Shown here: one piece after another, positions 3,001 to 22,506 of the stretch | Layout of the letters: each line of letters opens with the position of its first letter | Numbering within the stretch: position 1 is the stretch's first letter | Assembly (NCBI GenBank): GCA_964443405.1 | Contig: CAYUDB010000001.1 | Coordinates: 2,752-66,751, forward strand | Length of the DNA: 64,000 bases | Source: an uncultured bacterium | Lineage (GTDB): Bacteria > UBP14 > UBA6098 > B30-G16 | Direction: 5' to 3' | The notes under the pieces: generated by a model | The model's database searches: none | Told to the model about the DNA's origin: nothing | What the model saw: the letters and a program-made list of their open reading frames with translations, nothing else | Translations under genes and position numbers: made by a program

Positions 3001-3062
3001 CGAATGCAGCCGCCGCAAAACACAGCACGGCTGTGAGCACCGCAAAAACCTTCCTACTCATC
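1..3062 (-). CDS. Large secreted repeat protein, 5'-partial in the window (N-terminus at 3062; C-terminus lies beyond the window start). Contains repeated Ig-like (Big/SbsA-type) modules.
   Basis: ATG at 3060-3062 with upstream GGAGGAG RBS. The N-terminus MSRKVFAVLTAVLCFAAAAFAQG is a signal peptide. The minus-strand frame stays open for >3 kb to the window edge. Recurring ~90-aa modules (e.g. PPIFFDPQPAPGTF..., APTATALGPQDATVTAC...) resemble the Ig-like repeats in the 10080-12560 protein. The overlapping plus-strand ORFs are Cys-rich low-complexity artefacts. Confidence 0.7.
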
Positions 3063-3272
3063 ACTCCTCCTTAGATTTGATTTGTTAATACTCTTTGTTT
3101 TTTCGCTTATTCTCTCAAACAGTGTGAAAGCACGCCGAATTAAATATATTTCTTAAAATTAAGACCACCCTCGATGTTGTCAAGGGAAATTTGCCTTAAA
3201 CAATCTTTGCGCACGCGCAGTTTTCCAACACGCTCAAACAACTGCGCGGGAAAACGTTCCACTGTTTCCAAA

Positions 3273-3297
3273 ACACGTGCGCATTGCGCGCACGTGT
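3273..3297 (-). terminator. GC-rich perfect 10-bp inverted repeat (ACACGTGCGC-attgc-GCGCACGTGT) followed by TTTTGG on the minus strand. Candidate terminator of the 3315-3944 lipoprotein gene.
   Basis: Perfect 10-bp stem seen directly; it lies 18-42 nt downstream of the stop of the minus-strand gene. The T-run is only 4 nt. Confidence 0.35.
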
Positions 3298-3314
3298 CTG
3301 ATATGTCTTTACAC

Positions 3315-3944
3315 TCAATGAATAGTGTAGCTTTTGAGCTTCATGTCTTTAACATCGGTAGAATCGGCGTTGAACGACGCGAGAATACGCACAGGACCGA
3401 TTTCCGGAGCAAGCCAATTGTAGATTTTCATACTGCCGAGCATGCCTAATGAGACACTCACTTTTTCTTTGTAGCACTCGAAGCTGCCAGCACCGACTGT
3501 TATCGTCTCTTTTGCCAAAACTTCACCGTTTATTGTTGCCAAACCCGAAGTCTGAGACCAAGTTTGTCCGACAGATGGCGCAAGCGGCGAAACAGGGAAC
3601 CGAAGTAACATGGATCCGTTGTAAACTATGGCTTGTAAGTAGTTGGAATCCTTGCGGTAATAGGTGGAATCATCTGTGTCATCGCCGGGTTCCACTTCGA
3701 GCAGAACATACCATTCGAAACTATCTTTGGTTGCCATGTGAATGAGTGTTTGAGTTGCCTCATATGTGAACTGCCCTGTGCTATCGGGGCTAATTGCCGT
3801 AACGTCGTACACCCACTGGTTTTCGACAGTAAGCGGGAAATAATCTCCAGGGGTATTGTTATCGTCATCGTCATCGCCACAACCCACAAAAAGCAGAGCG
3901 AACGCCGCAAAAATCAGTGTTGCCAAAAGTGTAGCTCTTTTCAT
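3315..3944 (-). CDS. Lipoprotein of unknown function
   Basis: ATG at 3944 preceded by AAGGAGGAG. N-terminus MKRATLLATLIFAAFALLFVGCGDDDDD carries a lipobox (VGC) followed by an acidic stretch. No recognisable catalytic motifs. Confidence 0.6.
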   Translation of the reverse strand: MKRATLLATLIFAAFALLFVGCGDDDDDNNTPGDYFPLTVENQWVYDVTAISPDSTGQFTYEATQTLIHMATKDSFEWYVLLEVEPGDDTDDSTYYRKDSNYLQAIVYNGSMLLRFPVSPLAPSVGQTWSQTSGLATINGEVLAKETITVGAGSFECYKEKVSVSLGMLGSMKIYNWLAPEIGPVRILASFNADSTDVKDMKLKSYTIH

Positions 3945-4396
3945 TACTCCTCCTTGTTTTAGGCAAAATAGAGAGTTTTGCATAAAAGTCAAATTAAAAG
4001 CGCAGTTTACGCAAATTTTTGCGCGCAAATTTTTCTGTGTAAAAAGTTGAGCGCAGAAAATAGTGAGTTATGATTAATTGCGCAACATTTTTTTGCAAAG
4101 CTTGTTTGAACCATTGATTTTAGATACATCTCAATATTTTGCTACAACTCTTTTCAAATTAATAAGTTCAACATCTTACATAATAATTACAGCACACAAA
4201 GCAGCTAATCAATCGAGAAAATTGTTCATTGAATGTGCTTTCTTAATAACGTAAAAATCGTTACTTAAAAACTAGAGTTTCAAAATCAAACGCGCCAAAT
4301 GCATTGAAATTATGCACAAATAGCAACTAAACCTCACAAAGTGCTAGTAGGTTTCGCGTGTTATGCAAATATTGCACTTCAGCAACAACCGTGATT

Positions 4397-6256
4397 TCAG
4401 AAACTCCATTTGCACCCACGTACAGAAAAAATGCTATCTACAACAAAAATAACAGTATCTCCGTTCATAGGTTCATGTGATGAAAACAGTTCGAACCATG
4501 AGCGCGTATGCGAAAAACTCAAAATGCGCACGCCCAAACTGTGAGATACTCGTATGAATTCGCTTACCCCAGTAGAGTGCCGCAGCTCGATTGTGCCGAA
4601 AATGCGCATGGTATCGAGTCTATCGCGTGCATCGAAGTTTGCCTCAAAAATTGCGCGCGGCGTGGTGCACGAGAAAAGTTCGAAAGCGCTCGATGGGCAA
4701 ATATGCTCTGCCGAAATAGGCAAACATTCAGGACAAGTATTTTTCACTCGCAAATCTGTGCCAATGCAAACTAATGTGTCGCAAAGTGTTTCTCCAATTT
4801 GCGCCGCCACTACAACCACTTCAGCAAAACAATCACCATCGATATCGGCAATGGCGGGCGAAGTTACTACAGAATATCCTATGCGAATAGAATCGCGCAC
4901 CACGCCAAAACCATCAAGCTCATAAACATACCCACCGAGCGTGCCAATATAAATGCGCACACCACCCGAAAGTTCTACAAAACCAGTTTTAGCTGCATTT
5001 GCGCGAAATTGCCCCCATGCAATTTGCGAAGTTGTATCGGCAAGCGACGGCGACGAGATAATTAGAGTATCAGAAATCTTTGTTTGCCAAACAGTTACAA
5101 CGCTATCACCAGCAGGAAAGTAGCGAATGCAATTAACAAAACCGTGCCCATCGCCAAAGACTATTTCCACATTACCATCGCCATCGATATCACCGGCAGC
5201 AGCTGAAGAGTAAATGGGCGCTCCAAAAGAAGTTCCAGCCATCTCCCAATATGATATGTGACGATCGCCATTTTCATCGCCGTCGATGCAATAAAACCAG
5301 CCGTCGGAGGCACCAATGAATACTTCTGAATCAACATCGCCATCAACATCGGCAACAGCAGGAGAAGCAGGCACGTGTGGATAAGCACCAGCTGTGGAAA
5401 TTGCCCACAAAAGCGCACCTGTTTTGTCGAAACAGACAATTGAGCCGCCAACACCATCTCGAGCACCGCATTCCCACATTCGACGCCAACCTGTGCCCAA
5501 AACGATCTCGTTTTCGCCATCGTCATTGAGGTCTGCCACTGCTGGCGTTGAAATCGTTGGACCGTCAAGCGGCGCAAACCATAACACATCGAAATTGCCC
5601 ACAGCACCGTCTGTGCCGATACTGCTAGGTACCCAACAAGCATGTTCTGCACCAGAATAACCTATGTAACCATCGTCGATGCCTGCGGAAATATCTGCCT
5701 GCAAACAAAATAGCGCCGGACACAACGCATTCGAACAACCGATAACAACCTCACTGCCAACAAAAGCCGTGTCAATGTCGGCAATGGCTGGCGATGAATG
5801 CCACATGTAAGTTCCCGTTCCCGTAATCAAGCCAAAGCGCCACAAAAATGCACCGCGACTGTCAAAAGCTTCCACCGACCAACCAGAAGTGGTGCCACCC
5901 ACAACTTCGGGCACGGCATCGCCTGCAAAATTGCTCACAGCAGGCGAACTTCGCGATTCATCTGTGCGCGTACAAAGATGCCACTCGAGGTTACCATATG
6001 CATCGATTAGGCGCCATGCACCATAAAGTGGATAATAAGGCGCCCGAATTTCATCCGATCCAACCACAATTTCCAAAAACGAATCGGGTTCTCCACCCAA
6101 AGCATTATATTCGAAATTCGCCACAGCAGGTGAGCTGCCATATATCATCCAGTCATTATAGTCGCCCGAAAAAGCAAATTTCCACTTTACAAACATGTGC
6201 CCATGAGCAATTGACACTATGCAGAGCAAAAGCAGCAAAATTCTTATTTTCTTCAT
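4397..6256 (-). CDS. Secreted FG-GAP/VCBS-repeat (integrin-alpha-like beta-propeller) protein
   Basis: Signal peptide MKKIRILLLLLCIVSIAHG after the internal ATG at 6256. Multiple repeats of the form AVADVDGDVDSEVFIGASDG, IADIDGDGNVEIVFGDGHG and IADIDGDCFAEVVV are typical of FG-GAP/VCBS calcium-binding propeller blades. Confidence 0.7.
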   Translation of the reverse strand: MKKIRILLLLLCIVSIAHGHMFVKWKFAFSGDYNDWMIYGSSPAVANFEYNALGGEPDSFLEIVVGSDEIRAPYYPLYGAWRLIDAYGNLEWHLCTRTDESRSSPAVSNFAGDAVPEVVGGTTSGWSVEAFDSRGAFLWRFGLITGTGTYMWHSSPAIADIDTAFVGSEVVIGCSNALCPALFCLQADISAGIDDGYIGYSGAEHACWVPSSIGTDGAVGNFDVLWFAPLDGPTISTPAVADLNDDGENEIVLGTGWRRMWECGARDGVGGSIVCFDKTGALLWAISTAGAYPHVPASPAVADVDGDVDSEVFIGASDGWFYCIDGDENGDRHISYWEMAGTSFGAPIYSSAAAGDIDGDGNVEIVFGDGHGFVNCIRYFPAGDSVVTVWQTKISDTLIISSPSLADTTSQIAWGQFRANAAKTGFVELSGGVRIYIGTLGGYVYELDGFGVVRDSIRIGYSVVTSPAIADIDGDCFAEVVVVAAQIGETLCDTLVCIGTDLRVKNTCPECLPISAEHICPSSAFELFSCTTPRAIFEANFDARDRLDTMRIFGTIELRHSTGVSEFIRVSHSLGVRILSFSHTRSWFELFSSHEPMNGDTVIFVVDSIFSVRGCKWSF

Positions 6257-10079: not shown

Positions 10080-12560
10080 TTACTTTATGAATGTAATGTC
10101 TCGCGCAAAGGTAGAACTGCCATGCCAAATAATTGTATATGTGCCCGATGGCAAGTTTTCTGGTTGCCACAAATACGTGCCACCCTTCGATATGCCTGCA
10201 AAAAGAAGCTCCACTTGTTTGCCCATTCTGTCGAAAACCGCAAGTTGCCCATATTCTGGCGTGGCAAGCGATAATGTGATGGCACTTTGGGCATTAAATG
10301 GGTTCGGATAGGCAAAAAGCGCCGATGCACGCGGCAAAGAAGATGCGTCGGCAATGCCTGTGGTGTCGGCAAAGAAAGTGTAACAGAAATCAGGTGTCAG
10401 CACGTTCGCACCGCAGTATTCCGCCTTGTCCTGTAAGTTGCGCACGCACAAGGTGTGATTCGAATGCGAAATCTCATCGGGTGAATAAATACCTATTACT
10501 CCGCCAGTTGTAGGCATAAAGTCGAGCGCATCGAAAGGTATTTCCACACCATCGAAAAGAAATGCGGCGTGCGCATAGCTTAGTGCCGTAAACTCATCCA
10601 CAAGCTCAAATGATATTTCGGGATGTCGCGTGTGTGTTGTGCCACCCGAAACTGGCGAAATCGGTATAACTTGTGGCGGTGTATAATCGACGAGAAAATA
10701 AAAATCGAACGGTGCCGCAGTGTTGCCACGAGTGTCCTTGAGGTTTTCAACAGTTACGTTCACACGTCCTTGCATCCATTCTATCATGGGCGTAAAAATT
10801 ACCGTGTCGCCGTGGATAACAAGCGTTGAACCTGTGTGCACATAATCGTTTATGATCACACGAAGCGAATCCCACATTACGCCATCGGCATCGACGCAGA
10901 CAATCTTTATGCTCTGCCCAATACACGATGACGAACTGCCCATAGCTGGTTCTACGTAATCGATAATTGGTGCACCCACTCCGGGCACATAGTTAAACGA
11001 CCAACATTCCGATGGCATACAGTTTGGAGCGCACATTGTGGCGAGGTCGCAGATGTTTTGAACGCACACAACATGCACACCCGGTGAAAGCGCCGAAACA
11101 GACGAAAAAATCGTGTAACCTCCAGCTATCGCCGATGACGAAAAAGTGCGCGAAGCTCCATCTAGTGTCATTTGAACGCCTGTTAAGTTTATACCTGCAC
11201 CGGCATTGGTTATGTTCGCACGGATTTCAGTTATAGCAGTAGTGAGTGTTTCGCCTTCGCTGGGCGAGACTATGGTCATTGTTGGCGCCTGCAAATCCAC
11301 ACGGAAATTCGACGTGAAGGGTGTTGGCAAAATGTTGCCGGCAATGTCGCTAACTCTAAGCGATAGGTTTACATTTGCACCATTTGCCCAAGTGAACGAC
11401 GGTGTAAAAATTAATGTGTCGCCCGAATGCGAAATCTCCGGCGATGATGATGTGTATGTTCCCGAACCATAAGGAATTGTAAGCGTCGTCGAAGTCCAAT
11501 CAACACCAGAGCCGTCGGTGATGCGCAATTTTATGCGGGCATTGTTGCAGCTAACAAACGATGAGGGTGTTGGTGAAACCAATGACACAACAGGCGGATC
11601 AATATCGAAACCCGAACCGGTAGTGTCGGCAAGTGAGCTGCTCGAAAGTATCAGAAATTGATTCATGGTAACCGCAAAAATATACGGATATTGCACGCTA
11701 CAATCTGCAGTCATGGAGGTTGTGCGATATTCATCCACAGGCGCAGGCGTTGCAGTAGTTGTCCAGTCGAGAAGCTGGAAGCCATAGTTGCCGTTTGCAA
11801 CGATGTATTGTGTTCCGTTCGAGCAACCGTGCCGACAATTGCCATCAGTTGATGAAAAACGACCGGCTATTGTCGAAAAACTGTCGAAGCTCACAGCGAG
11901 AACATTGCCCGTGCCAACACCAAGTTCTGCACCATCGGCAACGTAAACCCTTCGTGAATCGACAGATACATCAACACTATACCCGGGAGTGGCTGTGCCG
12001 CCCACAATAAGCGGCAAAGATGGATCTGATATATCGTAGATAAAAATGCCACCTGTAAGACCAATAGCACATATATTACCTTGCACAGCAACGGTTTGTG
12101 CAGCATAAGGTGACGAATACACTTCTGTTAGCGTAGAAGGTGGCGTGAAGCGCAGAATTTTAAAAAAGTTCGTGACGGCAGCATAAACATACCCATCGTC
12201 ATAGGCAATGCCTCGCACCAAATCGGATGTCCCAAAATTGTAAAGAGCGGTGGAAAACAAATGACGCGGGTTCGACATGTCGGCAACAACAATTTGACTT
12301 GTTGCGGTAATAAACGCATAACCATCGCCGATAGCCATGTGCATCACATAACCCGAACACACAAGCGAATCGATTTTTTCGGGCGCTGCAGGGTTGGAAA
12401 CATCTACAATAAACACTGTGCTTCTGTCGAGCACATACACCAAATCCTCATACGGCAGGCAAAACTGCGCGTTCGTAAAACCGCCAAGCGAACCAGTGAG
12501 TGTCATGGCATTAGCCATGCTGAAACACAAAATAAGCACAAGTAGCAAAATTTTTTTCAT
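10080..12560 (-). CDS. T9SS C-terminal-domain (Por_Secre_tail) cargo protein with N-terminal LVIVD-repeat beta-propeller and several Ig-like domains
   Basis: ATG at 12560 with AAGGAGA RBS and signal peptide MKKILLLVLILCFSMANA. LVIVD-type repeats (LVYVLDRSTVFIVDVSNPAAP..., IVVADMSNPRHL). Ig-like modules (PPVVSLVSPTPSSFVSC..., APTMTIVSPSEGETL...). The C-terminus (YPNPFNAQSAITLSL...GTYLWQPENLPSGTYTIIWHGSS...ITFIK) matches the T9SS type-A CTD signature. Confidence 0.8.
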   Translation of the reverse strand: MKKILLLVLILCFSMANAMTLTGSLGGFTNAQFCLPYEDLVYVLDRSTVFIVDVSNPAAPEKIDSLVCSGYVMHMAIGDGYAFITATSQIVVADMSNPRHLFSTALYNFGTSDLVRGIAYDDGYVYAAVTNFFKILRFTPPSTLTEVYSSPYAAQTVAVQGNICAIGLTGGIFIYDISDPSLPLIVGGTATPGYSVDVSVDSRRVYVADGAELGVGTGNVLAVSFDSFSTIAGRFSSTDGNCRHGCSNGTQYIVANGNYGFQLLDWTTTATPAPVDEYRTTSMTADCSVQYPYIFAVTMNQFLILSSSSLADTTGSGFDIDPPVVSLVSPTPSSFVSCNNARIKLRITDGSGVDWTSTTLTIPYGSGTYTSSSPEISHSGDTLIFTPSFTWANGANVNLSLRVSDIAGNILPTPFTSNFRVDLQAPTMTIVSPSEGETLTTAITEIRANITNAGAGINLTGVQMTLDGASRTFSSSAIAGGYTIFSSVSALSPGVHVVCVQNICDLATMCAPNCMPSECWSFNYVPGVGAPIIDYVEPAMGSSSSCIGQSIKIVCVDADGVMWDSLRVIINDYVHTGSTLVIHGDTVIFTPMIEWMQGRVNVTVENLKDTRGNTAAPFDFYFLVDYTPPQVIPISPVSGGTTHTRHPEISFELVDEFTALSYAHAAFLFDGVEIPFDALDFMPTTGGVIGIYSPDEISHSNHTLCVRNLQDKAEYCGANVLTPDFCYTFFADTTGIADASSLPRASALFAYPNPFNAQSAITLSLATPEYGQLAVFDRMGKQVELLFAGISKGGTYLWQPENLPSGTYTIIWHGSSTFARDITFIK

Positions 12561-12889
12561 TGAATCTCCTTTTTTGCATATCAGAATTTACCTATATCAA
12601 ACCATCTGTCAAGCCTCATGCGGCGCGCGGGAGCGTGCGTTTCAGAGACTGCACCACCTTAGTCTTCAACAATTGGCGAAAAATCACAAACCAGAGCTTA
12701 CCGGATCTCTATTTCATCGCTAATCTCGCCAAGAGCAGGAGGCGTAGCCACTTCTAGAGGTGACCACTTGGCACACACCTTTTTGGCACTTCGTGCCGTT
12801 TCTGTCGTTGGAAGAAAATAAAAACCGGCTACGAGTTGAATTTTTGCAAGAGGCGTAGCCTCTGACAAAAGTGCCCACTGTCACCGGCA

Positions 12890-13312
12890 CTAGACATTCC
12901 AGAGGAAGAGGTGCGTATCGTCATCGAAGGTGCGGGAAATTGTGTCCCAGTGCCAAGGGATGACGGTTATTTCGCCTGTGATGGAGATTTCACCCGAGAA
13001 AAGATGCCCACCAAACGTCTCAAAACTGCTACTACCCAAAATCGCATGCGCATGAACTACAAAAGTGCCATCCTTAGCGGTAATGTTGCCAGAAAGCGAA
13101 AGAATTTCGAAATCGCCCTCGAAGGATTTGCGCATATACTTTTTTGTGCTCAGTTCAAAACACCCAAGCTCAGCTTTTCCCATAGCACCGATGCCCGAAA
13201 TCGAGCCGCCGATGTGCTCTTTTTCGGCAAAATCGGTGAGACTCGCAATTAGATCTTCACCTTTGTAAAGGCGAACAACATAAATGCCGGTGTCGGTTTT
13301 TTTGAATTTCAT
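12890..13312 (-). CDS. PPC (DUF296, plants-and-prokaryotes-conserved) domain protein
   Basis: 140 aa. RBS AGGGAGGGAAC before the ATG at 13312. The overall sequence (MKFKKTDTGIYVVRLYKGEDLIASLTDFAEKEHIGGSISGIGAMG...VVHAHAILG) is typical of the PCC/DUF296 fold. Confidence 0.6.
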   Translation of the reverse strand: MKFKKTDTGIYVVRLYKGEDLIASLTDFAEKEHIGGSISGIGAMGKAELGCFELSTKKYMRKSFEGDFEILSLSGNITAKDGTFVVHAHAILGSSSFETFGGHLFSGEISITGEITVIPWHWDTISRTFDDDTHLFLWNV

Positions 13313-13374
13313 GTTCCCTCCCTAGTTAAAAAAAAGGGGACGCCTATTGCGCCCCCAATAACGTTTACATGCGT

Positions 13375-15117
13375 TTAACGTGCTGCAGTTTCAGTAGAAT
13401 CCTCTTCGCCCATTGTGGGTGAAAAACTAGAGCACAAAAACTCGAATGTTTTGCGCAATGCCGTAGTAACGCGTCCGTTAGAATTGTCCATGTAATAGAG
13501 TGGGAAGGCGAAAATTGCGCCACGAGTGTCGGGTTTGGCAAAACGTATGTGAACTTGGCGACCGGTAATGTCGGAAGTGTCGGATTCGCCGATGCCACCG
13601 TAAAGCGACATAGCATATGGCACTCCCATAAAGTGACCGTATGTGCCCAAACCTTTGATGCCCGGCAAAAGTCCGTCGGTGAGTTTGGTGGCATCAACTG
13701 TAATGTCGCTCATGCCAAAACGCGAGGCATCGGCAATTTTTGCGCCGCGGATACGTTGTTGGTCGCTCGATTGCCACGTTACACCAAACATGTCAAATGG
13801 AATCTGTCCAACAGGATTGGTGGTGGATGAATCGACAAAGCCTGGTATGTTCTCAAAAAAGCCGCGACCGTCGAAAATCACGCGACCGCCAGCAATGACG
13901 TAGTCACGTAACATGTCGAGTGCTTTTTGACTGAGAGCATTACGCGGCAAAACCGGCGATGTGGGGCACAAAAACACATACACAATGCTGTAATTGCGCA
14001 AATCTATTGGTGTTACGTTTAAATCGACACCGGTGAACGAAGCACGATACGAAGTATCGACATCGTAAGATGAGAACAAGCCACTACCACCGCGCAATTG
14101 GTCGAAAATGCCGTTGTAGAACGTTTTCATTGCGGGGTTCCAAGCACTGGGACCGGGAGCCAAATAAAACGCCTTCATGCGATGGTTGAAAGTGCCCGCC
14201 AGCATAGCGCTTTTGTTGGCATCGATGCTTGGGTCGAAGTAGGGCTGCACCGCATAGAAAGTTACGGTATCCTGCACACCTTCGTAACGGGCATCGTCGC
14301 GCACCTTCACTATGAAGCGACAAAGTCCTGTGGGTATGTCGCCACGAATGGTCGTCGAATTGTTGCGAATCCAACCGTCATCGGGAAACTCGCCTTGGTA
14401 CGCGAAAAATACCGAGTCGTCCGCACGCGAATCGCGAACAACTCTGCCCGAATCGACATTTTCTATCCACCAATAATACTCAAGGATAATGGATTTGTCG
14501 GGGTCGTGCGCATCCCAAGTTTTGCGGTAACCGTACCAATCCCAAGTTGTGTTTTCGAGAACCCAAAGTGTATCGACATAAGCCTCGAGTTCGGCTGTGG
14601 AATCTTCTTTGTCGGCACGGATGATAAGGGAATCTGGAGGACGGTTTGTGCGATAAATTATGCGGCATTTCGCATCGGATACGAGTGAATCGTTATCGAA
14701 AGCGCGCACACAGAACAAGTGCTTCGTAACGCTGTCGCCCGCTTCGAGTGAAAGGTAGATGGTATCGGCGCTGCTGGTTGTGTTTTTCCATTTGAAAACA
14801 CGTTTCGCAACACCTGTGCCAAAGATTATGGAATCGGGAATTTCGAGTGTGCCTACATAAAAACTATCGAAGCGTGCAGCAGCAACAAAATTGGCTGGCA
14901 CATCGATGTATTGGTATTTGCCGATGATGCCGTCTTTATCGGAAGCCCACCAGTAAATGACCGGTGCATTGCTCAATGTGTCGCCATCAGCGGGATTATC
15001 GTAAACATTCACGTGAGGGGGCGTGTTTTCGATGTAGTCGCCCTTGATATCGCCGCAGCCTGTGAACATTTGCGCTGCAACGAAAATCAGTGTGAGTATC
15101 GTAAGTTTTAATTTCAT
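13375..15117 (-). CDS. Lipoprotein of unknown function (580 aa)
   Basis: Internal ATG at 15117 preceded by AGGAGTGCGAAG. N-terminus MKLKLTILTLIFVAAQMFTGCGD carries a lipobox. It is the fourth gene of the five-gene minus-strand operon with the T9SS components. No recognisable catalytic motif. Confidence 0.6.
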   Translation of the reverse strand: MKLKLTILTLIFVAAQMFTGCGDIKGDYIENTPPHVNVYDNPADGDTLSNAPVIYWWASDKDGIIGKYQYIDVPANFVAAARFDSFYVGTLEIPDSIIFGTGVAKRVFKWKNTTSSADTIYLSLEAGDSVTKHLFCVRAFDNDSLVSDAKCRIIYRTNRPPDSLIIRADKEDSTAELEAYVDTLWVLENTTWDWYGYRKTWDAHDPDKSIILEYYWWIENVDSGRVVRDSRADDSVFFAYQGEFPDDGWIRNNSTTIRGDIPTGLCRFIVKVRDDARYEGVQDTVTFYAVQPYFDPSIDANKSAMLAGTFNHRMKAFYLAPGPSAWNPAMKTFYNGIFDQLRGGSGLFSSYDVDTSYRASFTGVDLNVTPIDLRNYSIVYVFLCPTSPVLPRNALSQKALDMLRDYVIAGGRVIFDGRGFFENIPGFVDSSTTNPVGQIPFDMFGVTWQSSDQQRIRGAKIADASRFGMSDITVDATKLTDGLLPGIKGLGTYGHFMGVPYAMSLYGGIGESDTSDITGRQVHIRFAKPDTRGAIFAFPLYYMDNSNGRVTTALRKTFEFLCSSFSPTMGEEDSTETAAR

Positions 15118-15142
15118 CTTCGCACTCCTAATTGGGTTGCAG

Positions 15143-16054
15143 TTAAAATTGTGCCCCAAGCGTAAAGCGATGAACATGCTCGAGTTTTTCCATATATGTA
15201 AACGAATAATCGGCACGAACAAACATTCCCGCAACGGGATATTTTACGCCCGCACCAAGCGTGAATTTTTCGGCATCGTAGTTGAGTTTTATGCCGCCAC
15301 GCACGAAAGCCATTTCTTTGAAAGCGTATTCGGTGCCGAACTGAAACTTCTCGAGGTTATCGCTCGGGTGAGAACCTTCAGCATCGAGTGTGAGCCTGTG
15401 TGTTGAGTTTTTGATAAGCTCGCCTGCAGCGCCAAAATGAAATGCCATAGGCAACGGTGCCGATTCTTGAATAAATTCGATGTCGGGACCAAAATTTGAG
15501 AGCTTCATGCCGAGACGCACATCTTTGAAAGCGGTTTTATACATTGTGCCAATGTCCATAGCCCAACCGTGCGCGTGAATGTCGGCGAGATATTCGCCGA
15601 GGTATTTTGCATTTATACCCACAGCAAAACGGTCGGTGAGACGAGTGGAATAGGAAAGACCAATGGACAAATCGCCAGCTGTGAAAGTTCTGCCTGTGCC
15701 TTCGGGATACAGCGGCGTAGTTTCATCCATTTCGCCCGCGTTTAACCCTACGAAGAAAACACCCATAACTCCACCAGCCATAGGCATCGAAACTGCGCCA
15801 AATTCATGGCTCATATCGGCATACAAAACCGAATGCGTAAAGCATGCCTGACGAGAAAGTTGCCATGCCATGCCCGCAGGGTTGTAAATTATCGCCGAAA
15901 TATCGTCGGAAACACTGATAAACGATCCACTCATGCCTTCGGCGCGTGCGCTTACCGGCATTTCGAGAAATTGCGCCACGCTTTGCCCTACTTTTGCCTG
16001 TGCCAAAAGTAAAGCCGGAAGCGCTAGTGCGAGTATAGTCAATATTCTTTTCAT
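15143..16054 (-). CDS. PorV/PorQ-family T9SS-associated outer-membrane beta-barrel protein
   Basis: RBS AAGGAG; signal peptide MKRILTILALALPALLLAQA. The N-terminal motif GQSVAQFLEMPVSARAEGMSGSFISVSDDISAIIYNPAGMA matches the PorV/PorQ (UPF0164-like) signature G-sAaeFL-I-vsARA-gMGGAf-DDa-A-ywNPAGL. The C-terminal aromatic residue (…TLGAQF) is typical of OMP barrels. At 303 aa it is PorQ-sized. Confidence 0.6.
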   Translation of the reverse strand: MKRILTILALALPALLLAQAKVGQSVAQFLEMPVSARAEGMSGSFISVSDDISAIIYNPAGMAWQLSRQACFTHSVLYADMSHEFGAVSMPMAGGVMGVFFVGLNAGEMDETTPLYPEGTGRTFTAGDLSIGLSYSTRLTDRFAVGINAKYLGEYLADIHAHGWAMDIGTMYKTAFKDVRLGMKLSNFGPDIEFIQESAPLPMAFHFGAAGELIKNSTHRLTLDAEGSHPSDNLEKFQFGTEYAFKEMAFVRGGIKLNYDAEKFTLGAGVKYPVAGMFVRADYSFTYMEKLEHVHRFTLGAQF

Positions 16055-16072
16055 CTATTTCTCCTTTGCGCC

Positions 16073-18352
16073 TTATTTGATTATGACGAACTTGCCGGTT
16101 TGAATTTCGCCGTCTGCATCTTCCACGCTCAAAACATATATGCCCGAAGTTACAGCCTGATCGTTGCGTGTGATGAGGTTCCAGTCTTCGGCGCCGACCA
16201 TTTCGCTGCCAGCAGATGCAGATGCGGTTTCATCGTGATCTAGCGTCTGCACCAAGTCGCCATCGAGGGTGTAGATGCGAATCTTGCATTTGGTGGGTAT
16301 GTTGTAGAAACGCAATTTGCGTGAATACTCGCTCCATTCGCCGGTATAGGATTTTTCCCAATGCTCGGAATAATCGTGGTCAACGCGGTAAGGGTTTGGC
16401 ACAACACGAACGATATTGTCCTTCGACGACTTGCCCGCAGGCACAACCCATTTTGCAAAGTTCACTTTGTTCGATTCGATTGGGTCGAGCATTTTGGAAG
16501 GTTGACCATAATCGAAAGATGTGATGACTATGAATTTGTCGTCGCCGGGCAAGAGATTTTCGATTTCGTAGTAGTAGTAGGTTTCGCCTGCGATGGTTGT
16601 TTCGGGTGGCATGCCGTTGTTTGACGAGATGCGCGTTGGGCGACGCTGCACCCAATCGACTGTATCCACACCATCCACAACAGGAACACGATAAAGCGAA
16701 TCGGAATAGACTACTGTGTCGGATGGCATATCGGCATAGGTGTGCATGCCCAAAGTGTCGGTAGTGCGGCGCACATAGTCGATTGTGTAGTAATCGACTT
16801 TGTCGAACTGAGCAATAGGCACAAAGTAGTTTTCGATTTTAGCTTCGGAGACATAAATACGATATCCCTCAAAATCGTAAAGACCCGTTATGTTGTCGAA
16901 AAAGTTTTCGACTAAGGTATCGGGTTTCCAGAGAATAGTAACTTTGTTCTCGCCGGTTACAATTGAAAAATTGGGTGTAGGTGGCGGCTGTGGACCTTTG
17001 TAATCGTTATCGTAGATTTGTTTAACCCAATATGCAGCGTAAGTTAGCTCGGTGAAGTTGAACTCGGAAGCACTCCATGCGGGGTTTGTGTTTGGGTTTG
17101 CATTGCGCGGGTTGACGTGAAAATTATTGCCCACAATGAAGCCAATTGTGAATTCGACCGAATCGTGCGGGGCTATGTTCATAGGACCAAACGATAACAA
17201 ATAACGAGTATCGTAACCGTTGGCGATGTCTTTCATTGTAGCATTGTCGGTGAGCGGTGCACCTTGCCAGTTTGCGGAGGTGGCGGAGTCGGTGGTGGCT
17301 GTTTGGTCGAAGTCGAATTCGCCATTTGAGAGCACTTTGTATTTGTTGATGTCGCCCGAAGGTGTGCCATCGAAACCGGGGTTGGACCCAGTGCGTGCAG
17401 GACCCCAGTCGTAAGATTCGGTGCTGTTGGAGATCCACCAGTTGTAAGAATAGCGATCGACGTCTTCTGGCACTTGCAAAACACGTGCTGCCATTGCGCC
17501 AACAGGGCTTTGTGCTGTGTAAACCTGATCGGTAGGATCGCCATCATTATCTGCAATCCATGCGAGGTTCACTTCGACTGTTTCACCTGTGGCGGAGTTG
17601 AAGTATTTTTGAATAAAGCCCGTTATATCGTCTTGGGCATAGTCACTAACATCAACATGACCTACGTCACCGTCGATGTATAGACCAATATACATGTCGC
17701 TGATGGTTCTATCGTCGTCGCGGATATTTTTGAACTTGTAGTTGATGAAGACGAAGTTGGCGGAATAATTGTAGCTCCAAGCATAGCTCTTTTGCTCCAC
17801 TTGCACGCCAATTGGTTTGTGGTCGGGTGGCGAAAAACCCGAAACAGTGATGTCGCTAAATTTGCCCAGATAATCCTCTTCGGAAATGGCAGTAGAATCG
17901 CCATTGAGGATTGAACGGTAAACCAACGTATCATCTGCGGCGTCTGTTGGGAAAAGTTCGTTTGCGTCGCGTTCCCAACCATCTTCGCCTACCGAAACCA
18001 AAGTATCACCGTTGATGACCGCGCCAATCCAGAGTGCGCCCATAAATAGGTATTCCAAACCAGAGCACCCCGGATATTCACCCGAAGGCGCACATACACC
18101 CGAATTTCCGCACACTTCCTGTGCGTCGAGAATGCAGTCGGGATCGCTGTTACCACGTTGCGAGCCAAAGAAACCGTAGTTTGAAACGGTCATGTAGAGG
18201 TCGCCGGCATGGTGTGTTTTCTCATCGGTAGAAGGACCAAGCGAAACATTGGTTCTCAAAAAACGATGCTGAGAATTGCCGCTGTTGGTCTTATCGGTTG
18301 CCCATGCGCACACGAGCAAAACCGTCAGTAGTGATATGATTATCTTTTTCAT
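16073..18352 (-). CDS. Secreted T9SS cargo-type protein (759 aa) with a variant C-terminal sorting domain
   Basis: Signal peptide MKKIIISLLTVLLVCAWA. The C-terminal ~80 aa (VVPNPYRVDHDY...CKIRIYTLDGDLVQTL...SGIYVLSVEDADGEIQTGKFVIIK) has the T9SS CTD pattern. The middle has fibronectin-III-like segments. It sits immediately upstream of the PorV-like gene. Confidence 0.6.
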   Translation of the reverse strand: MKKIIISLLTVLLVCAWATDKTNSGNSQHRFLRTNVSLGPSTDEKTHHAGDLYMTVSNYGFFGSQRGNSDPDCILDAQEVCGNSGVCAPSGEYPGCSGLEYLFMGALWIGAVINGDTLVSVGEDGWERDANELFPTDAADDTLVYRSILNGDSTAISEEDYLGKFSDITVSGFSPPDHKPIGVQVEQKSYAWSYNYSANFVFINYKFKNIRDDDRTISDMYIGLYIDGDVGHVDVSDYAQDDITGFIQKYFNSATGETVEVNLAWIADNDGDPTDQVYTAQSPVGAMAARVLQVPEDVDRYSYNWWISNSTESYDWGPARTGSNPGFDGTPSGDINKYKVLSNGEFDFDQTATTDSATSANWQGAPLTDNATMKDIANGYDTRYLLSFGPMNIAPHDSVEFTIGFIVGNNFHVNPRNANPNTNPAWSASEFNFTELTYAAYWVKQIYDNDYKGPQPPPTPNFSIVTGENKVTILWKPDTLVENFFDNITGLYDFEGYRIYVSEAKIENYFVPIAQFDKVDYYTIDYVRRTTDTLGMHTYADMPSDTVVYSDSLYRVPVVDGVDTVDWVQRRPTRISSNNGMPPETTIAGETYYYYEIENLLPGDDKFIVITSFDYGQPSKMLDPIESNKVNFAKWVVPAGKSSKDNIVRVVPNPYRVDHDYSEHWEKSYTGEWSEYSRKLRFYNIPTKCKIRIYTLDGDLVQTLDHDETASASAGSEMVGAEDWNLITRNDQAVTSGIYVLSVEDADGEIQTGKFVIIK

Positions 18353-18377
18353 CTATTCCATCCTTTGGGATATGAAT

Positions 18378-21300
18378 TTACCATGCCATCTCTATGCCAA
18401 GACGAATGTCGGTAGGTGTGCTCCAGTTCGCCGGATTTTTATCGTAATCGGTGCCGATGAGAGTATAGGTGCCGTCGGCATTGTAAACAATCCAGCTTTT
18501 ATCGGGTTCGCCTGTGTCGGAAGAAACTGCCAACACACTGCGCGAGTTTGTTACGTTGCCCACGAGTAAGTAGGCGCTGTAGTTGAATTTGCCAATGCGA
18601 AAATCTTTGTTCAGCTTCACATCGAGGTTGAACTGCGAGGGCATGCGAAGGATATTTGTTCTTTCCCATGCTTTTTCGCCAGGGCGAATTTCGTAATGTG
18701 GATTGTACTTTGAAGGTGTGTACGGATAACCACTACCCCAACTAAGCACACCGTTTATACCCCATCTGTCGGGCATTTTCAAACCGAACACTTCGGGATG
18801 CTCATCTTTTGAGGCACGCAAATCTACAACCAAGTTCACAAGATGGCGCTGATCCCAGTTGAGCGGCAAGTCGCGCAGAGGAATTGCAGATTGATCGAAG
18901 AGTGCATCGTAGCCGCTGCGTTCGGAAGAGCTTTTGCCATTGGCGAAAGCGAAGGTGTAGTTGAAGTTTACAGACCAATAATGCGAAAGTGCTTTGTCGA
19001 TGTTGAACTCCACACCGCGAGTGCGCGCATAATCGGAGTTTACATATACGGATTGTTCGAGAGGACCAATTCTCTGTTGAGATGTATTGAGCAAATCGTA
19101 GATGTCTTTGTAGTAGCCCGAAAACTGAACCGACCAGTTATCGGCAAAAGCATATGCAACACCAAGTTCGTATGCAACTGTCTTCTCAAACGAAAGGTTC
19201 GGGTTGCCCATAAGACGCCCTGCGCTTGAGCCTTGAGTAGGTGTTTGGTAGAAGTTGTCGAAACCCGGCAGCTGATAGAAGTGACCATAGCTGAAGAAAA
19301 GCTTAGATTTGTCGGTAATTGGATAGCTCATGCCCAAACGTGGCGAAACTTTTACTTTGGTGCGCGAAACTTTGTCGGTTTCCCACCAAGGCTCAAGGAA
19401 GACCGCGAGATCTTCTTGAATGGAATCGTTCATGACCTCATTTGCCTGAATAAGCGCGTCGAGACGCAAACCTATATTGGCAATAAGCCCGCCGTATTCC
19501 ATTTTGTCTTGAACATATGCCGCAAAAGTCATAGGTGTGCGCGTGTAGAAACTGCGGAAAATACCGTTGTCGGAATATGGCATGCCATCGTAAATGCCGT
19601 TGTATTTGGCTTCGGGATATTGAATTTCGTTCATGTTCATGCGAATCCATTGATACTCGATACCAGTTTTGACCAAATTGTTTTTGTCGAGCTGGTTGGA
19701 ATAATCGCCCTTCACCAAAATCATATCGACTGTTCTTTCATGCCACACAGCGTATCTGTCGTAACCGCGATACTGGAAACCCGAGTATTCGTCGTAGTTG
19801 GTGTTGCCGTTACGGTCGATGTATGGTTCCCAATCGTCGCGCAAATAGTTGGGACCATCATATTTGCCATTGCCATTGAGGTCTAAGAACGGCTCGCCAT
19901 ATTCGCTTACATCGTATCTGCCGTTGCCGTTTTCATCGTAATAGTTGCAATAGCCATCACGTGGGGTGTATTGACCATCGCCGTTGAGATCTTCGTATTC
20001 GCCCCAGTCAGCTGTGCCGTTATCGTTGGCGTCGTACCATGTGTATTCTTCGACAATGTTATTGCCGGGTGTATCGTAGTAGCTACCATAAACGTATTCG
20101 CCAACATCCTTTCTTCCATCCTCGTTGATATCAACCCATAAGGTTTCCATCACAAAAGGATATGGACCGGTGCCGTTTATGAGAGCCTGATAGCTCATTC
20201 CATAAGGATAACCGTCAAGGAACGGTTCACCATCCATAAACATTTCGCCAATATTGAAGCCGAAGAAACTGGAATATGGCGAGTTGAAATTTGTCGTGCG
20301 AGGCTCAAATATACCGTTGGCGTTCCAGTCGAACCAAGGTTCTTCGCCAATCTGCGGGCGTAATGTGTCGCTGAAAAGTGTGTCGGTGCGAATGATTGAG
20401 TCGCGCAATGCAGGGTTATTCCAAATTGTGTCCACACGCGAGATGTTCGGTTCCCAATATTCGCCGAAATCCCACATGCCATTGCCGTTTATGTCTATCC
20501 ATTGGACACGCACATTGGCAATACCATCGTTGTTCACGTCCACCCAATCGTCGAGTGTGCGCCAAGCGGAACTGTCGGTGGCGAAATCGCCAGGGGTAAG
20601 CCCACCTGGGCTATACGTTCTATCGTTGCGGAAATATCCGAAGCGAAGCTCGTAGAACGATTTTTGCGTAACATTGTGCGTAATGTTCAACGCTGCCTGA
20701 TATGAACTTTGCGTGCTCAAATACGCAAACTCTGGGCAGTAGTAATAGTACCAGTTGAAAGTGCGCCAACGCGACCAGTTGCCGTTGAACGACAACACAT
20801 AACGGAAGGAAGGCGTGATGTATTGCTTGAGTTTTATGGTAGCTTGGTATTGGTTCACTCGTTTTTCGGGGAAGAAACCGTACCAATCGTAGTCGATGTT
20901 GTAGGGTGAAACGAGATCGTCGGTTGTGGCTATAGGTGCGCCACCGTTCTCGTAATCGAGATCGAAGACTTTATTGTAAGGCGTTGTGCCATCAGAATTT
21001 TCGCCGGTGATTGAGAAGAAATATGAGATTCTTTTGTCGCGTGGCATTTTGAAGCCGAACACAGGCAAAAGATATGTGGACACAGGTTCGGGACCTGAAA
21101 GTGAGAATTCGAGTTTGTCGGCATTTGTGGTAAACTTGTTCAAAGCATCGATGCGGAAATTTGTGGTGCTGTAACCCAAAGAGCCAGAAACTTTATTCGG
21201 GTCGCCTTCTTTTGTGATGATCGAGACGATAGCTGAAAGTGCACCGCCATATTCAGCATTGAAGGTACCGGTTTGCACCTGAACTTCTTGCACAGAGCTT

Positions 21301-21911
21301 TTCGACACATCCATTGCCTGACCACCATAAGTGGGGTCGTTAACTGTCATGCCGTCAACGCTATATTGGACTTCTGAGCCTCTGCCACCACGGAAGTGGA
21401 GTTCACTACCCTGACGCTTGACACCAGATTTTGTGGCAATGACTTCTGAGACCGAGTTGAAAGCACCTTTTTGGATGTCTTCGGCAGAAGTTGTTGAACT
21501 TGAGCCGGTTACATCGCGCTTGACGAGGTCGGTTTTCTGAGCGCTCACAACCATTTCCTCGCCTTTCATAGCTTCCGACTTCAATTTGACGTTTGCAGTA
21601 GAAGTTCTGTCGGCGCTTACGGAAATACGTTGAACCGTCATTGTGGCATAGCCCACCGAAGAGACGATTATATCGTAGAAGCCGGGACGAACATCAAGAA
21701 ACAGATAGTTACCATCGAGGTCGGTGGTGGAATAGTTGATGGTATCTTTGGTGCCCGGATTGATGAGCATAACATCGGCAGCAGCAACTGCATCTCCATC
21801 GTCGTCAATAACTTCGCCGACGATTTTTCCGGTTGTTCCTGCGAATAGAGCACCTAAGAACGACATTATGGCAAGCATGAAAGCTGCCAAAAACATGCCA
21901 GTCCTTCGCAT
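18378..21911 (-). CDS. Giant TonB-dependent-receptor-like outer-membrane protein (1177 aa): N-terminal carboxypeptidase-regulatory-like domain, plug, beta-barrel, and inserted Asp/Asn-rich calcium-binding (thrombospondin-type-3/EF-hand-like) repeats
   Basis: N-terminus after the signal peptide, TGKIVGEVIDDDGDAVAAADVMLINPGT...DLDGNYLF...GFYDIIVSSVGYAT, is a CarbopepD_reg-like fold. The plug-like segment is VVSAQK...RQGSELHFRGGRGSEVQYSVDGMTVND. The terminal aromatic (…RLGIEMAW) fits an OMP barrel. The middle region carries DANDNGTADWGEYEDLNGDGQYT, DENGNGRYDVSEYGEPFLDLNGNGKYDG and YIDRNGNTNYDEY. Confidence 0.65.
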   Translation of the reverse strand: MRRTGMFLAAFMLAIMSFLGALFAGTTGKIVGEVIDDDGDAVAAADVMLINPGTKDTINYSTTDLDGNYLFLDVRPGFYDIIVSSVGYATMTVQRISVSADRTSTANVKLKSEAMKGEEMVVSAQKTDLVKRDVTGSSSTTSAEDIQKGAFNSVSEVIATKSGVKRQGSELHFRGGRGSEVQYSVDGMTVNDPTYGGQAMDVSKSSVQEVQVQTGTFNAEYGGALSAIVSIITKEGDPNKVSGSLGYSTTNFRIDALNKFTTNADKLEFSLSGPEPVSTYLLPVFGFKMPRDKRISYFFSITGENSDGTTPYNKVFDLDYENGGAPIATTDDLVSPYNIDYDWYGFFPEKRVNQYQATIKLKQYITPSFRYVLSFNGNWSRWRTFNWYYYYCPEFAYLSTQSSYQAALNITHNVTQKSFYELRFGYFRNDRTYSPGGLTPGDFATDSSAWRTLDDWVDVNNDGIANVRVQWIDINGNGMWDFGEYWEPNISRVDTIWNNPALRDSIIRTDTLFSDTLRPQIGEEPWFDWNANGIFEPRTTNFNSPYSSFFGFNIGEMFMDGEPFLDGYPYGMSYQALINGTGPYPFVMETLWVDINEDGRKDVGEYVYGSYYDTPGNNIVEEYTWYDANDNGTADWGEYEDLNGDGQYTPRDGYCNYYDENGNGRYDVSEYGEPFLDLNGNGKYDGPNYLRDDWEPYIDRNGNTNYDEYSGFQYRGYDRYAVWHERTVDMILVKGDYSNQLDKNNLVKTGIEYQWIRMNMNEIQYPEAKYNGIYDGMPYSDNGIFRSFYTRTPMTFAAYVQDKMEYGGLIANIGLRLDALIQANEVMNDSIQEDLAVFLEPWWETDKVSRTKVKVSPRLGMSYPITDKSKLFFSYGHFYQLPGFDNFYQTPTQGSSAGRLMGNPNLSFEKTVAYELGVAYAFADNWSVQFSGYYKDIYDLLNTSQQRIGPLEQSVYVNSDYARTRGVEFNIDKALSHYWSVNFNYTFAFANGKSSSERSGYDALFDQSAIPLRDLPLNWDQRHLVNLVVDLRASKDEHPEVFGLKMPDRWGINGVLSWGSGYPYTPSKYNPHYEIRPGEKAWERTNILRMPSQFNLDVKLNKDFRIGKFNYSAYLLVGNVTNSRSVLAVSSDTGEPDKSWIVYNADGTYTLIGTDYDKNPANWSTPTDIRLGIEMAW

Positions 21912-22506
21912 TGTAATACCCCCCTACGCATTTGTTAATCAATATGTAATTACGAAATCAAGCCCCTTATGTCAACGCTATTTGACAATTATTTAATTTC
22001 CAGCAAACAAGCTCTAAAAAATATTTTATCAAAAAAAAATTTCAATACCTTTTTCGCACCTGTCGATTTTTTATTCTGAAAATTGTGAGCTGCCCAAATT
22101 TCTATTCCAACACGATGATAGCATCGCGACTTTCATTGCAGCTGTGCCAAAACCAGCCATTACCACGGCGCAAAACAGTAAAACATTCTATTTTTCAATA
22201 ACTTAGTTTTGCAGCATTTTGATCTTCACTTCAACGGAGCGTCCGGTGACAAAAACCTGCCGCCCTTTTTTTGCTCTTCGTGCCGTTTCTCCCCCGTGTG
22301 AAGAAAATGAAACTGATTACGATGGGCTTATGCAGCGGCATACGAAGCGTGCGTTTCAGTAATTTGCCATCTTATCATTCGAAACTTTCCACAAATCTCA
22401 ATAAGAGCAGACAGCGTAAAGGTGCCAGTTGGCACTGGTGGAGACAAAAACTTTGATTTTTGGGAAAAATGCTGTAATTTATTTTATGATCTTTGCAAGG
22501 TGGAAA

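Follow-up and report, generated by a model that had tools for sequence, protein, structure and literature searches.

The 64,000-nt stretch of DNA analysed here (the window), from an uncultured bacterium, carries on its minus strand the genes T, X, V and L. They form a conserved and hitherto undescribed operon for outer-membrane proteins, found in uncultured Zixibacteria-like bacteria. The genes, their parts and their surroundings are as follows.

21912–22506, minus strand: leader, the intergenic stretch separating the divergent genes T and dprA, with the 15-mer AGAAACGGCACGAAG at 22276–22290
18378–21911, minus strand: T, TonB-dependent transporter, 1177 aa (ORF call)
21579–21824, minus strand: CarboxypepD_reg N-terminal extension of T (PF13620)
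21540–21560, minus strand: putative TonB box of T, EEMVVSA, aa 118–124, N-terminal to the plug (sequence motif only)
21240–21521, minus strand: plug of T (PF07715)
19782–20594, minus strand: barrel insert of T, about 270 aa long, aa 440–710 (motif scan)
16073–18352, minus strand: X, predicted secreted protein, 759 aa (ORF call)
17003–18235, minus strand: galactose-mutarotase-like supersandwich of X, aa ~40–450 (predicted structure)
16433–16981, minus strand: FN3-like beta domains of X, aa ~458–640 (predicted structure)
16076–16411, minus strand: putative T9SS-class C-terminal domain (CTD) of X with two insertions, aa ~648–759 (predicted structure and family profiles)
15143–16054, minus strand: V, PorV/PorQ-family outer-membrane barrel, 303 aa (ORF call and NF033709)
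13375–15117, minus strand: L, lipoprotein, 580 aa from ATG (ORF call)
15055–15066, minus strand: lipobox of L, FTGC (signal peptide and motif)
13423–14223, minus strand: ThuA/GIFT-like (GATase1-like) domain of L, aa ~299–565 (fold)
13336–13356, minus strand: intrinsic terminator, GGGGGCGC-AAUAG-GCGUCCCC followed by U8 (hairpin −18.2 kcal/mol, z −2.97)
12890–13312, minus strand: PCC/DUF296 gene, 140 aa (PF03479)
12789–12803, minus strand: second copy of AGAAACGGCACGAAG, upstream of an 826-aa LVIVD/Big gene (exact match)

The original prediction had listed five minus-strand genes, and all five ORFs were found at the sizes it gave; the mechanical ORF of L extends further back, to a TTG at 15234. 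The gaps between T, X, V, L and the PCC gene are 25, 18, 25 and 62 nt, in this order. The first four genes were read as an operon because they are separated by 18–25 nt only, an AGGAG-type ribosome-binding site stands ahead of each internal gene, and the first terminator is encountered only at 13336–13356; one operon of four genes, encoding an outer-membrane complex, is the best reading of the locus. The terminator, with T8 after the hairpin, sits between L and the PCC gene and closes the T-X-V-L unit. Thus, of the proposed five-gene operon the number of genes stands, but a single conserved five-gene unit does not, and the PCC gene, which had been placed in the same transcript, is preceded by a strong intrinsic terminator. 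The 140-aa product is the PPC/DUF296-domain protein it was taken for (PF03479, 1.9e-29, 102.8 bits, cutoff 25). It was rejected as a core part of the cassette on account of the terminator upstream and its presence in only 3 of the 35 complete related cassettes. Only the nearest clade (L009–L011/L084) has it behind L, and it is a bystander, a lineage-specific neighbour.

Motifs shared between the leader and the promoter of another T9SS cargo gene had also been claimed. The exact 15-mer AGAAACGGCACGAAG does occur in both places, where about 50 nt around the two sites are similar as well, and the chance expectation for matches with up to two mismatches is 0.16; however, it is absent from all 78 related loci. 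The second copy is flanked by 34-nt direct repeats (12735–12768 and 12846–12879), and the 826-aa LVIVD/Big protein is a probable T9SS cargo, its CTD scoring 20.7 bits, near the cutoff of 23. The spacing in the 15-mer, by manual reading, does not fit a sigma-54 site. Promoter-like hexamers were located at 21938–21910 and 22045–22018 by a sigma-70-type scan, in which their count was no higher than in shuffles, and Rfam gave no match over the whole window, leader included.

T begins with a signal peptide, and the domains expected of the TonB-dependent-receptor-like protein that had been proposed all scored above cutoff: CarboxypepD_reg (PF13620), plug (PF07715, 37.7 bits, cutoff 23.9) and the 22-strand TonB_dep_Rec barrel (PF00593, 83.9 bits, cutoff 27). 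It had been called giant, which overstates the case, as it is a large yet normal-range transporter with one long insert. A TonB-box motif resembling E-x-[IV]-[IV]-V-T-A is kept in the T orthologues, and with TonB box, plug and barrel T bears the full set of sequence hallmarks of a TonB-energised importer. Its nine NCBIfam hits included no equivalog above cutoff, and the SusC/RagA model was absent among them; the single T sequence found no hit among PDB sequences. A motif scan of the insert revealed eight DxNxDG calcium-loop-like motifs, among them four complete EF-hand-like loops of 12 residues, and each of the 45 cassette T orthologues examined had 5–15 DxNxDG motifs at the matching position. 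The names dockerin, TSP3 and EF-hand were not applied to the insert, since against Pfam it yielded no domain, the sole hit (GEVED) being at chance level.

In L, a lipoprotein, the ThuA/GATase1-like domain is non-catalytic. In agreement with the predicted 580-aa lipoprotein, its signal peptide is followed by a lipobox with an invariant G20–C21. Two beta-sandwich domains precede a C-terminal class-I-glutamine-amidotransferase-like domain, which has no catalytic Cys and does not possess the Cys-His-Glu triad that a class I glutamine amidotransferase requires; its fold resembles the GIFT/OST48/GldG type. A SusD-like identity was rejected for L, a beta plus alpha/beta and not a TPR-like protein, and the SusD families of Pfam and NCBIfam gave no hit with it. 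About 360 representatives of the L family exist at 50% identity. The L model was limited to 11 sequences because a second homologue search with the L alignment added no members, and its profile retrieved nothing useful from PDB sequences.

V reached 189 bits with the PorV_fam model NF033709 (cutoff 90), and five orthologues scored 202–227 bits, all above cutoff. With the equivalog models V scored 101 bits for PorQ (NF033711, cutoff 220) and 57 bits for PorV (NF033710, cutoff 250); the five orthologues also stayed below both cutoffs, and PorQ outscored PorV in all six proteins, V of the window included. Judged by these scores V is a PorV/PorQ-family barrel, as had been predicted for the 303-aa outer-membrane protein, and is nearer to PorQ than to PorV; it is not a PorP/SprF barrel. 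A search of PDB sequences with the single V sequence gave nothing useful. X adjoins V in every complete cassette, and the two genes are duplicated as a pair. At loci with two X-V units the V copies within a genome are 95–100% identical and the X bodies 53–70%, a pattern indicating, at the sequence level, that the V copies are homogenised by gene conversion reaching into the X CTD. Such loci provide a clean example of gene conversion keeping the barrels identical as their partners diverge. A mirror-tree analysis of CTD and V detected no co-evolution beyond shared phylogeny (partial r 0.10).

X belongs to a family of more than 1900 members annotated as ‘hypothetical’, for which no Pfam model exists. 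It begins with a signal peptide, and its predicted structure is confident (pLDDT 82). The predicted fold of aa ~40–450 matches solved galactose-mutarotase-like supersandwich domains, a type of fold common in carbohydrate-active enzymes; a glycan role is a guess from the fold alone. Fold comparison also placed the supersandwich in YidC and other carbohydrate-unrelated proteins, and the GH174 literature does not settle whether a supersandwich alone is catalytic. Many polar residues are invariant in the family, including H47, H178, H232, D227, D241, D242, D268 and R383. The X profile found nothing useful among PDB sequences, and X had no hit to the SusD families of Pfam and NCBIfam.

The predicted structure has beta strands at 679–757 that form a C-terminal beta-sandwich. 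The CTD of the window copy scored 16.3 bits with TIGR04183, under the cutoff of 23; among 40 X relatives the PorZ model was hit by 33, the PorU model by 12 and TIGR04183 by 10, the PorZ and PorU matches being confined to the CTD segments of those models. The X-family CTD scores better on these segments than on TIGR04183, the generic cargo CTD model, and the ordinary CTD-bearing T9SS cargo seen within the window has the opposite preference. From the family profiles and the structural model, X appears to end in a T9SS-class CTD, most like the retained CTDs of PorZ and PorU; for the claim that the 759-aa protein bears a CTD, the score of the window copy lies below threshold, and support comes from the family profiles and the predicted beta-sandwich. 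The T9SS link of the locus is supported: V, like its five orthologues, passes the curated family model NF033709. PorU and PorZ CTDs stay uncleaved, PorQ anchors PorZ, and a role in shielding CTDs from cleavage has been put forward for cognate PorV-like barrels (PMC10947112, PMC10202324).

The original prediction had gone further and speculated that X is a shuttle-associated processing factor and not simple cargo. In a wider form of this idea, X and V are an attachment module of the PorU-PorV or PorZ-PorQ type, and X serves T9SS processing or LPS delivery. In its favour, X stands immediately ahead of V, the place that porU takes relative to porV in Porphyromonas gingivalis, V is PorQ-like, and the X-family CTD best fits the PorZ/PorU segments. 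In addition, the supersandwich could bind glycan, as PorZ binds A-LPS (PMC8545088). The remainder of the protein speaks against this reading. The PorZ and PorU models gave 28–30 bits with X, over its last ~75 residues only, against cutoffs of 260 and 420, so the comparison upheld the CTD resemblance but did not extend it to the rest of X. PorU, a C25-type T9SS sortase, was ruled out for lack of a gingipain-like catalytic domain, and PorZ for lack of two beta-propellers and of a full-length model match: the X model contains neither a gingipain/C25 fold nor beta-propellers, and the family alignment no invariant Cys, consistent with the earlier remark that no catalytic Cys/His dyad is recognisable. 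Moreover, X forms a family of paralogues present in multiple copies, with tandem arrays lacking an adjoining V in some genomes, which is unlike a core T9SS part since such parts are single-copy. We know of no attachment complex that includes a TonB-dependent transporter, to which X and V are coupled here. The proposed pair of CTD protein and PorV-family barrel does exist and is conserved. X resembles PorU and PorZ in its CTD only, and a processing or delivery role is quite improbable.

The full T..X..V..L order was found in 35 of 78 related loci, as T-X-V-L or T-(X-V)2-L, and 15 more truncated loci were consistent with it; T-X-V-L is also present in L079–L081 and L085. Zixibacteria, UBP14 and Eisenbacteria are represented among these loci, as are MAGs labelled ‘Ignavibacteria’. 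The strict order is preserved at 33–60% identity across lineages, and T, X, V and L correlate with one another in their pairwise distances (r = 0.81–0.95). The four genes are thus inherited together, in the same order, across deeply diverged Zixibacteria-like lineages. Searches of the literature for Zixibacteria in connection with either T9SS or TonB-dependent transporters found nothing relevant.

This strict order weighs against the possibility that X is an ordinary cargo of the T9SS, which after cleavage is either released or linked to LPS. V would then be one more general shuttle, T and L would make up a separate uptake system, and the clustering would be due to outer-membrane co-regulation. 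Its CTD is of the T9SS class, some X paralogues stand alone or in arrays without T and V, and the CTD-V signal does not exceed phylogeny, all of which such a reading would accommodate. It accounts poorly for the order kept at such divergence, for the co-duplication of X and V with gene conversion that has its centre at V and the CTD of X, and for the preference of X for PorZ/PorU CTD models, the reverse of that of neighbouring cargo; we consider it unlikely.

The cassette lies among housekeeping genes, LplA/ETF being upstream in four lineages, and no CAZyme or glycoside hydrolase genes are consistently adjacent to it, for which reason a core function fits better than a niche polysaccharide locus. 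The core function might be that of a housekeeping machine for outer-membrane biogenesis or maintenance, one that handles lipid, LPS or surface-layer glycan for instance, instead of nutrient import. The cassette is single-copy and vertically inherited within conserved ETF-LplA synteny, all its parts co-diverge, the L domain is of GIFT/OST48/GldG-type fold, and FadL-type barrels can be subunits of essential machines, as BamG is a structural subunit of the Bacteroidota BAM (PMC12578637). Nevertheless, T has the conserved TonB box and plug typical of importers, and Omp85, LptD and other biogenesis families were not detected with Pfam and NCBIfam, which makes this alternative unlikely.

The reading that we favour, tentatively and with somewhat less than an even chance, is that T-X-V-L encodes a TonB-dependent uptake complex, in which X is exported by T9SS, held on V and serves T. 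X would leave across the outer membrane via the T9SS of the cell, and its CTD would be kept uncleaved and bound non-covalently to V, its probable anchor, like PorZ on PorQ. Because the uncleaved CTD would stay bound to V, X would be displayed on the surface beside T, where it may capture or trim a substrate outside the cell. A glycan or glycoconjugate is the likeliest candidate, going by the resemblance of the predicted X fold alone, and T would import the product using TonB. L would be an accessory or scaffold. In effect, such a complex would take up its substrate in the manner of SusC/SusD, except that T9SS parts, and not a surface lipoprotein, would fix the partner to the surface.

X directly follows T in all complete cassettes, and Oar of Myxococcus xanthus, which is needed for PopC secretion (PMC6434023), has the same N-terminal CarboxypepD_reg, plug and barrel as T. 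T could accordingly work outward as a TonB-powered exporter of X, V catching X by its CTD, but X has a T9SS-class CTD, the genome has other CTD cargo, X paralogues occur without any T, and none of the support for export is specific to this locus; we consider this very improbable. A hybrid machine, in which an Oar-like barrel translocates or gates X and a PorQ-like barrel catches the CTD without an SprA/Sov translocon, has a similarly slim chance; if true, it would represent a TonB-powered secretion and anchoring route made from T9SS-type signal and receptor parts. Oar itself is not known to have a PorV-family partner or CTD-bearing substrate.

The uptake complex that we favour shares features with several known systems. 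With PorZ-PorQ and PorU-PorV it has in common a protein with a T9SS CTD, putative in X, and a PorV/PorQ-family barrel; these pairs retain the CTD as barrel anchor (PMC10947112, PMC10202324), whereas retention of the X CTD is proposed. The X passenger is predicted to be a supersandwich with FN3 domains and not a gingipain-like sortase or double beta-propeller, X is multi-copy, the pair shares its operon with genes for a TonB-dependent transporter and a lipoprotein, and the hosts are Zixibacteria-like and not Bacteroidota; T-X-V-L thus does not replicate the secretion-processing machinery of PorU/PorV. In type B CTD systems such as SprB-SprF a cognate PorP/SprF-like barrel gene also lies beside the CTD gene and anchors its product to the surface (PMC10947112, PMC10202324), but V is of the PorV/PorQ family and the X CTD type-A/PorZ-like. 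The SusC/SusD utilisomes of Bacteroidota likewise combine a large TonB-dependent transporter bearing CarboxypepD_reg with neighbouring genes for surface-exposed partners, and the predicted X fold is common among carbohydrate-active enzymes. T, in contrast, has no SusC/RagA match, the cassette contains no SusD-like protein, glycoside hydrolases are not consistently adjacent to it, and X would attach via T9SS parts and not as a lipoprotein.

To our knowledge, T9SS biology is known almost wholly from Bacteroidota, where the only CTD proteins we know to be kept on dedicated barrels are those of the PorU-PorV, PorZ-PorQ and type-B/PorP pairs. The analysis defined three uncharacterised families, X, L and the T clade with the calcium-loop-rich insert, none of which has a Pfam or NCBIfam model. 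The locus suggests that the anchoring principle is reused in uncultured FCB phyla to give a TonB-dependent transporter its surface partner, which, if true, would explain by what means bacteria that lack surface lipoproteins of the SusD type make devices for capture at the cell surface.

Five consecutive ORFs lie on the minus strand of the window, as the original prediction had described. They encode a TonB-dependent transporter (T), the 759-aa putative surface protein (X), a PorV/PorQ-family barrel (V), a lipoprotein (L) and a PCC/DUF296 protein (PCC):

18378-21911, minus strand, T, ORF of 1177 aa
16073-18352, minus strand, X, ORF of 759 aa
15143-16054, minus strand, V, ORF of 303 aa
13375-15117, minus strand, L, ORF of 580 aa counted from the ATG
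13336-13356, minus strand, terminator hairpin (-18.2 kcal/mol) with a U8 tract behind it
12890-13312, minus strand, PCC gene, ORF of 140 aa

The T/X, X/V, V/L and L/PCC gaps are 25, 18, 25 and 62 nt, respectively, and an AGGAG-type ribosome-binding site stands ahead of every internal gene of the run. The hairpin is located immediately 3′ of the L stop codon, ahead of the ribosome-binding site of PCC, and no terminator-like sites were found between T, X, V and L in the window. X served as the query for retrieving 78 related loci, and in only three of them, all belonging to the nearest clade, is L followed by the PCC gene; in one of these it lies 14 nt past L and no terminator was detected there. 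The terminator and the presence in only three nearest-clade loci therefore make PCC a lineage-specific neighbour, expressed in the window by read-through at best. The cassette is composed of four genes, T-X-V-L, and the assignment of the fifth gene to the operon was wrong. The interpretation that we favour, at somewhat less than even confidence, is that T-X-V-L is a single transcript and that its products form an outer-membrane complex in which a T9SS-exported, V-anchored X serves T.

The complete T..X..V..L order was found in 35 of the 78 loci, and a truncated yet consistent order in 15 further ones. The cassette was also recovered, at 34-56% X identity, in independent gene calls with precomputed Pfam annotation, and complete Zixibacteria genomes, CP070742 among them, carry it as well. 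The protein collection contains more than 1900 relatives of X, all of them "hypothetical" and without Pfam domain. In species-representative genomes the X-encoding stretches number at least 573, the hosts being Zixibacteria, UBP14, Eisenbacteria, Cloacimonadota and MAGs labelled Ignavibacteria or FCB group. Since the pairwise distances among T, X, V and L are correlated (r = 0.81-0.95), the four proteins diverge together. X paralogues are also present as solitary genes or in tandem arrays without adjacent T or V. The cassette flanks are varied housekeeping genes, and no glycoside hydrolases were found consistently beside the cassette in the related loci. An LplA-type gene (lipoate-protein-ligase-like, LplA-B_cat) is located directly upstream of T in four diverged lineages (loci L001, L079, L080 and L085), which therefore places the cassette in conserved housekeeping synteny; ETF adjoins this gene in two of the four. 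That the cassette is itself a housekeeping outer-membrane machine is considered quite unlikely. In another related locus, L081, the flanks (596-6227 and 15217-16512) encode a cohesin-domain protein of 1276 aa with a FlgD_ig tail, along with a T9SS-tailed GH18 enzyme, and an MFS transporter directly follows L; carbohydrate-related neighbours were seen at no other locus. In L001 (2374-5295) a gene for a sigma-54 activator containing TPR_MalT repeats lies upstream of the cassette, and in L082 (1601-4066) such a gene precedes an X-X pair, a hint of sigma-54-dependent control in some lineages.

The domain assignments of T, V, L and the last gene agreed with those of the original prediction. In T, a signal peptide and an N-terminal CarboxypepD_reg domain are followed by a Plug and a TonB_dep_Rec barrel, and a TonB-box-like motif (EEMVVSA, aa 118-124) is conserved among the orthologues. 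T did not match the SusC/RagA model of NCBIfam, scored far under the cutoff of all NCBIfam equivalogs, and had no relatives in the PDB detectable by sequence. The barrel contains an insert that is not covered by any Pfam domain:

19782-20594 (T aa 440-710), minus strand, T barrel insert of ~270 aa with eight DxNxDG calcium-loop-like motifs

Four of the eight motifs are full 12-residue EF-hand-like loops, and 5-15 DxNxDG motifs were present at the same region of T in all 45 cassette orthologues examined. A precedent exists for Oar-like outward transport (PMC6434023); that T moves X outward in this way is regarded as very improbable, and the import role of T is retained in the interpretation that we prefer. 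The lipoprotein L carries a signal peptide, and the Gly-Cys of its lipobox is invariant across the L family. No Pfam or NCBIfam family was found for X or L.

V scored 189 bits against the PorV/PorQ family model of NCBIfam (cutoff 90). The window copy and five orthologues gave 189-227 bits with PorV_fam, 93-116 with PorQ, 57-94 with PorV and 57-84 with PorV2, all the equivalog scores (PorQ, PorV and PorV2) being under cutoff. The AlphaFold2 model of X, built from 40 homologues and of good confidence (pLDDT 82.4, pTM 0.78), comprises a supersandwich, FN3-like domains and a C-terminal beta-sandwich in this order, and Foldseek agreed with the supersandwich fold. The 82 invariant columns of the X family include many His, Asp and Arg residues and no Cys. 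When 40 family members were scanned against NCBIfam, 33 matched the PorZ model, 12 the PorU sortase model and 10 the generic CTD model, always within the last ~75 residues. The matches aligned to positions ~683-757 of the PorZ model (757 positions in all) and ~1024-1093 of the PorU model (1095 positions in all), that is, to the CTDs of these proteins, with at most 28-30 bits against cutoffs of 260 and 420, respectively. For ordinary cargo of the window (M14 and M4 peptidases and an 826-aa LVIVD protein), the matches were to the generic CTD model, with none to PorZ. The T9SS link and the structural analogy of a CTD protein beside its barrel were thus rightly recognised. The proposal that X is a PorU/PorZ-like processing factor is unsupported because its passenger is unrelated, it has no catalytic Cys and the family is multi-copy; the attachment complex suggested together with it is judged improbable.

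The CTDs of PorU and PorZ stay uncleaved and PorQ holds PorZ on the surface, and cognate PorV-like barrels may shield the CTD from cleavage (PMC10947112; PMC10202324). Ten loci (L001, L023, L025, L026, L028, L030, L032, L034, L040 and L077) have the arrangement T-X1-V1-X2-V2-L or a close variant. The two V copies of one genome are 95-100% identical as proteins and, in the four loci aligned, 97-100% identical at the DNA level over most or all of V; from one genome to another, V orthologues are 57-95% identical (a difference of 5-43%). The X1 and X2 bodies are 53-70% identical and their CTDs 62-100%. The X1 copies of different genomes are orthologous to one another, as are the X2 copies, therefore the X-V duplication is old, and the sequence comparisons indicate recurrent gene conversion that has V at its centre and reaches into the CTD of X. 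Assembly collapse is not the whole explanation of this pattern, since it was also seen in long contigs with a few residual differences (L001). A mirror-tree test gave no CTD-V correlation beyond shared phylogeny, thus the X-V pairing rests on adjacency, co-duplication and model preferences. That X is an ordinary cleaved cargo, and that the gene clustering reflects co-regulation only, appears unlikely.

The leader of T contains an exact 15-mer, AGAAACGGCACGAAG, which occurs twice in the 64 kb window:

22276-22290, minus strand, copy 1, 365 nt upstream of T
12789-12803, minus strand, copy 2, 229 nt upstream of the 826-aa LVIVD/Big gene (probable T9SS cargo)

The flanks of the two copies are similar over ~50 nt. 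The 15-mer was absent from the 78 related loci and matched no Rfam family. A 34-nt direct repeat (12735-12768 and 12846-12879, 76% identical) brackets the second copy in the PCC/826-aa intergenic region. The 826-aa protein (10080-12560, minus strand) has LVIVD repeats, Ig-like domains and a near-threshold T9SS CTD (20.7 bits, cutoff 23), and similar LVIVD/CTD genes stand beside the cassette in several related loci.

The surroundings in the window are ordinary chromosome, with dprA (divergent), coaBC, mutL, [FeFe]-hydrogenase genes and genes for several T9SS sorting-domain proteins. A 674-aa protein (45532-47556, minus strand) has the look of a sensory hydrogenase-kinase: its [FeFe]-hydrogenase-like domain (aa 18-302) is fused to a histidine kinase domain at aa 420-660. 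Its neighbours are a group A6 [FeFe] hydrogenase (47571-49283) and, at 49294-51246, a NuoF-like subunit. The C-terminal 250 aa of a 924-aa protein (31681-34455, minus strand) match DUF6754 (373 bits), the rest being unannotated.

In the complex that we tentatively propose, X would be exported by T9SS and kept on the surface by its uncleaved CTD bound to V. X would capture or trim a substrate, for which its own fold and that of L suggest a glycan as the probable kind, and T, in physical association with X, would import it using TonB energy, with L as an accessory. Gene structure, domain and fold assignments, synteny and the preferences of CTD and barrel are shown directly; export by T9SS, retention of the CTD, association with T and the substrate are inferred from them. 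The original observation was largely correct, and the cassette is a conserved combination of which no description was found in the literature searchable here. It couples TonB-dependent transport to putative anchoring parts of T9SS type.
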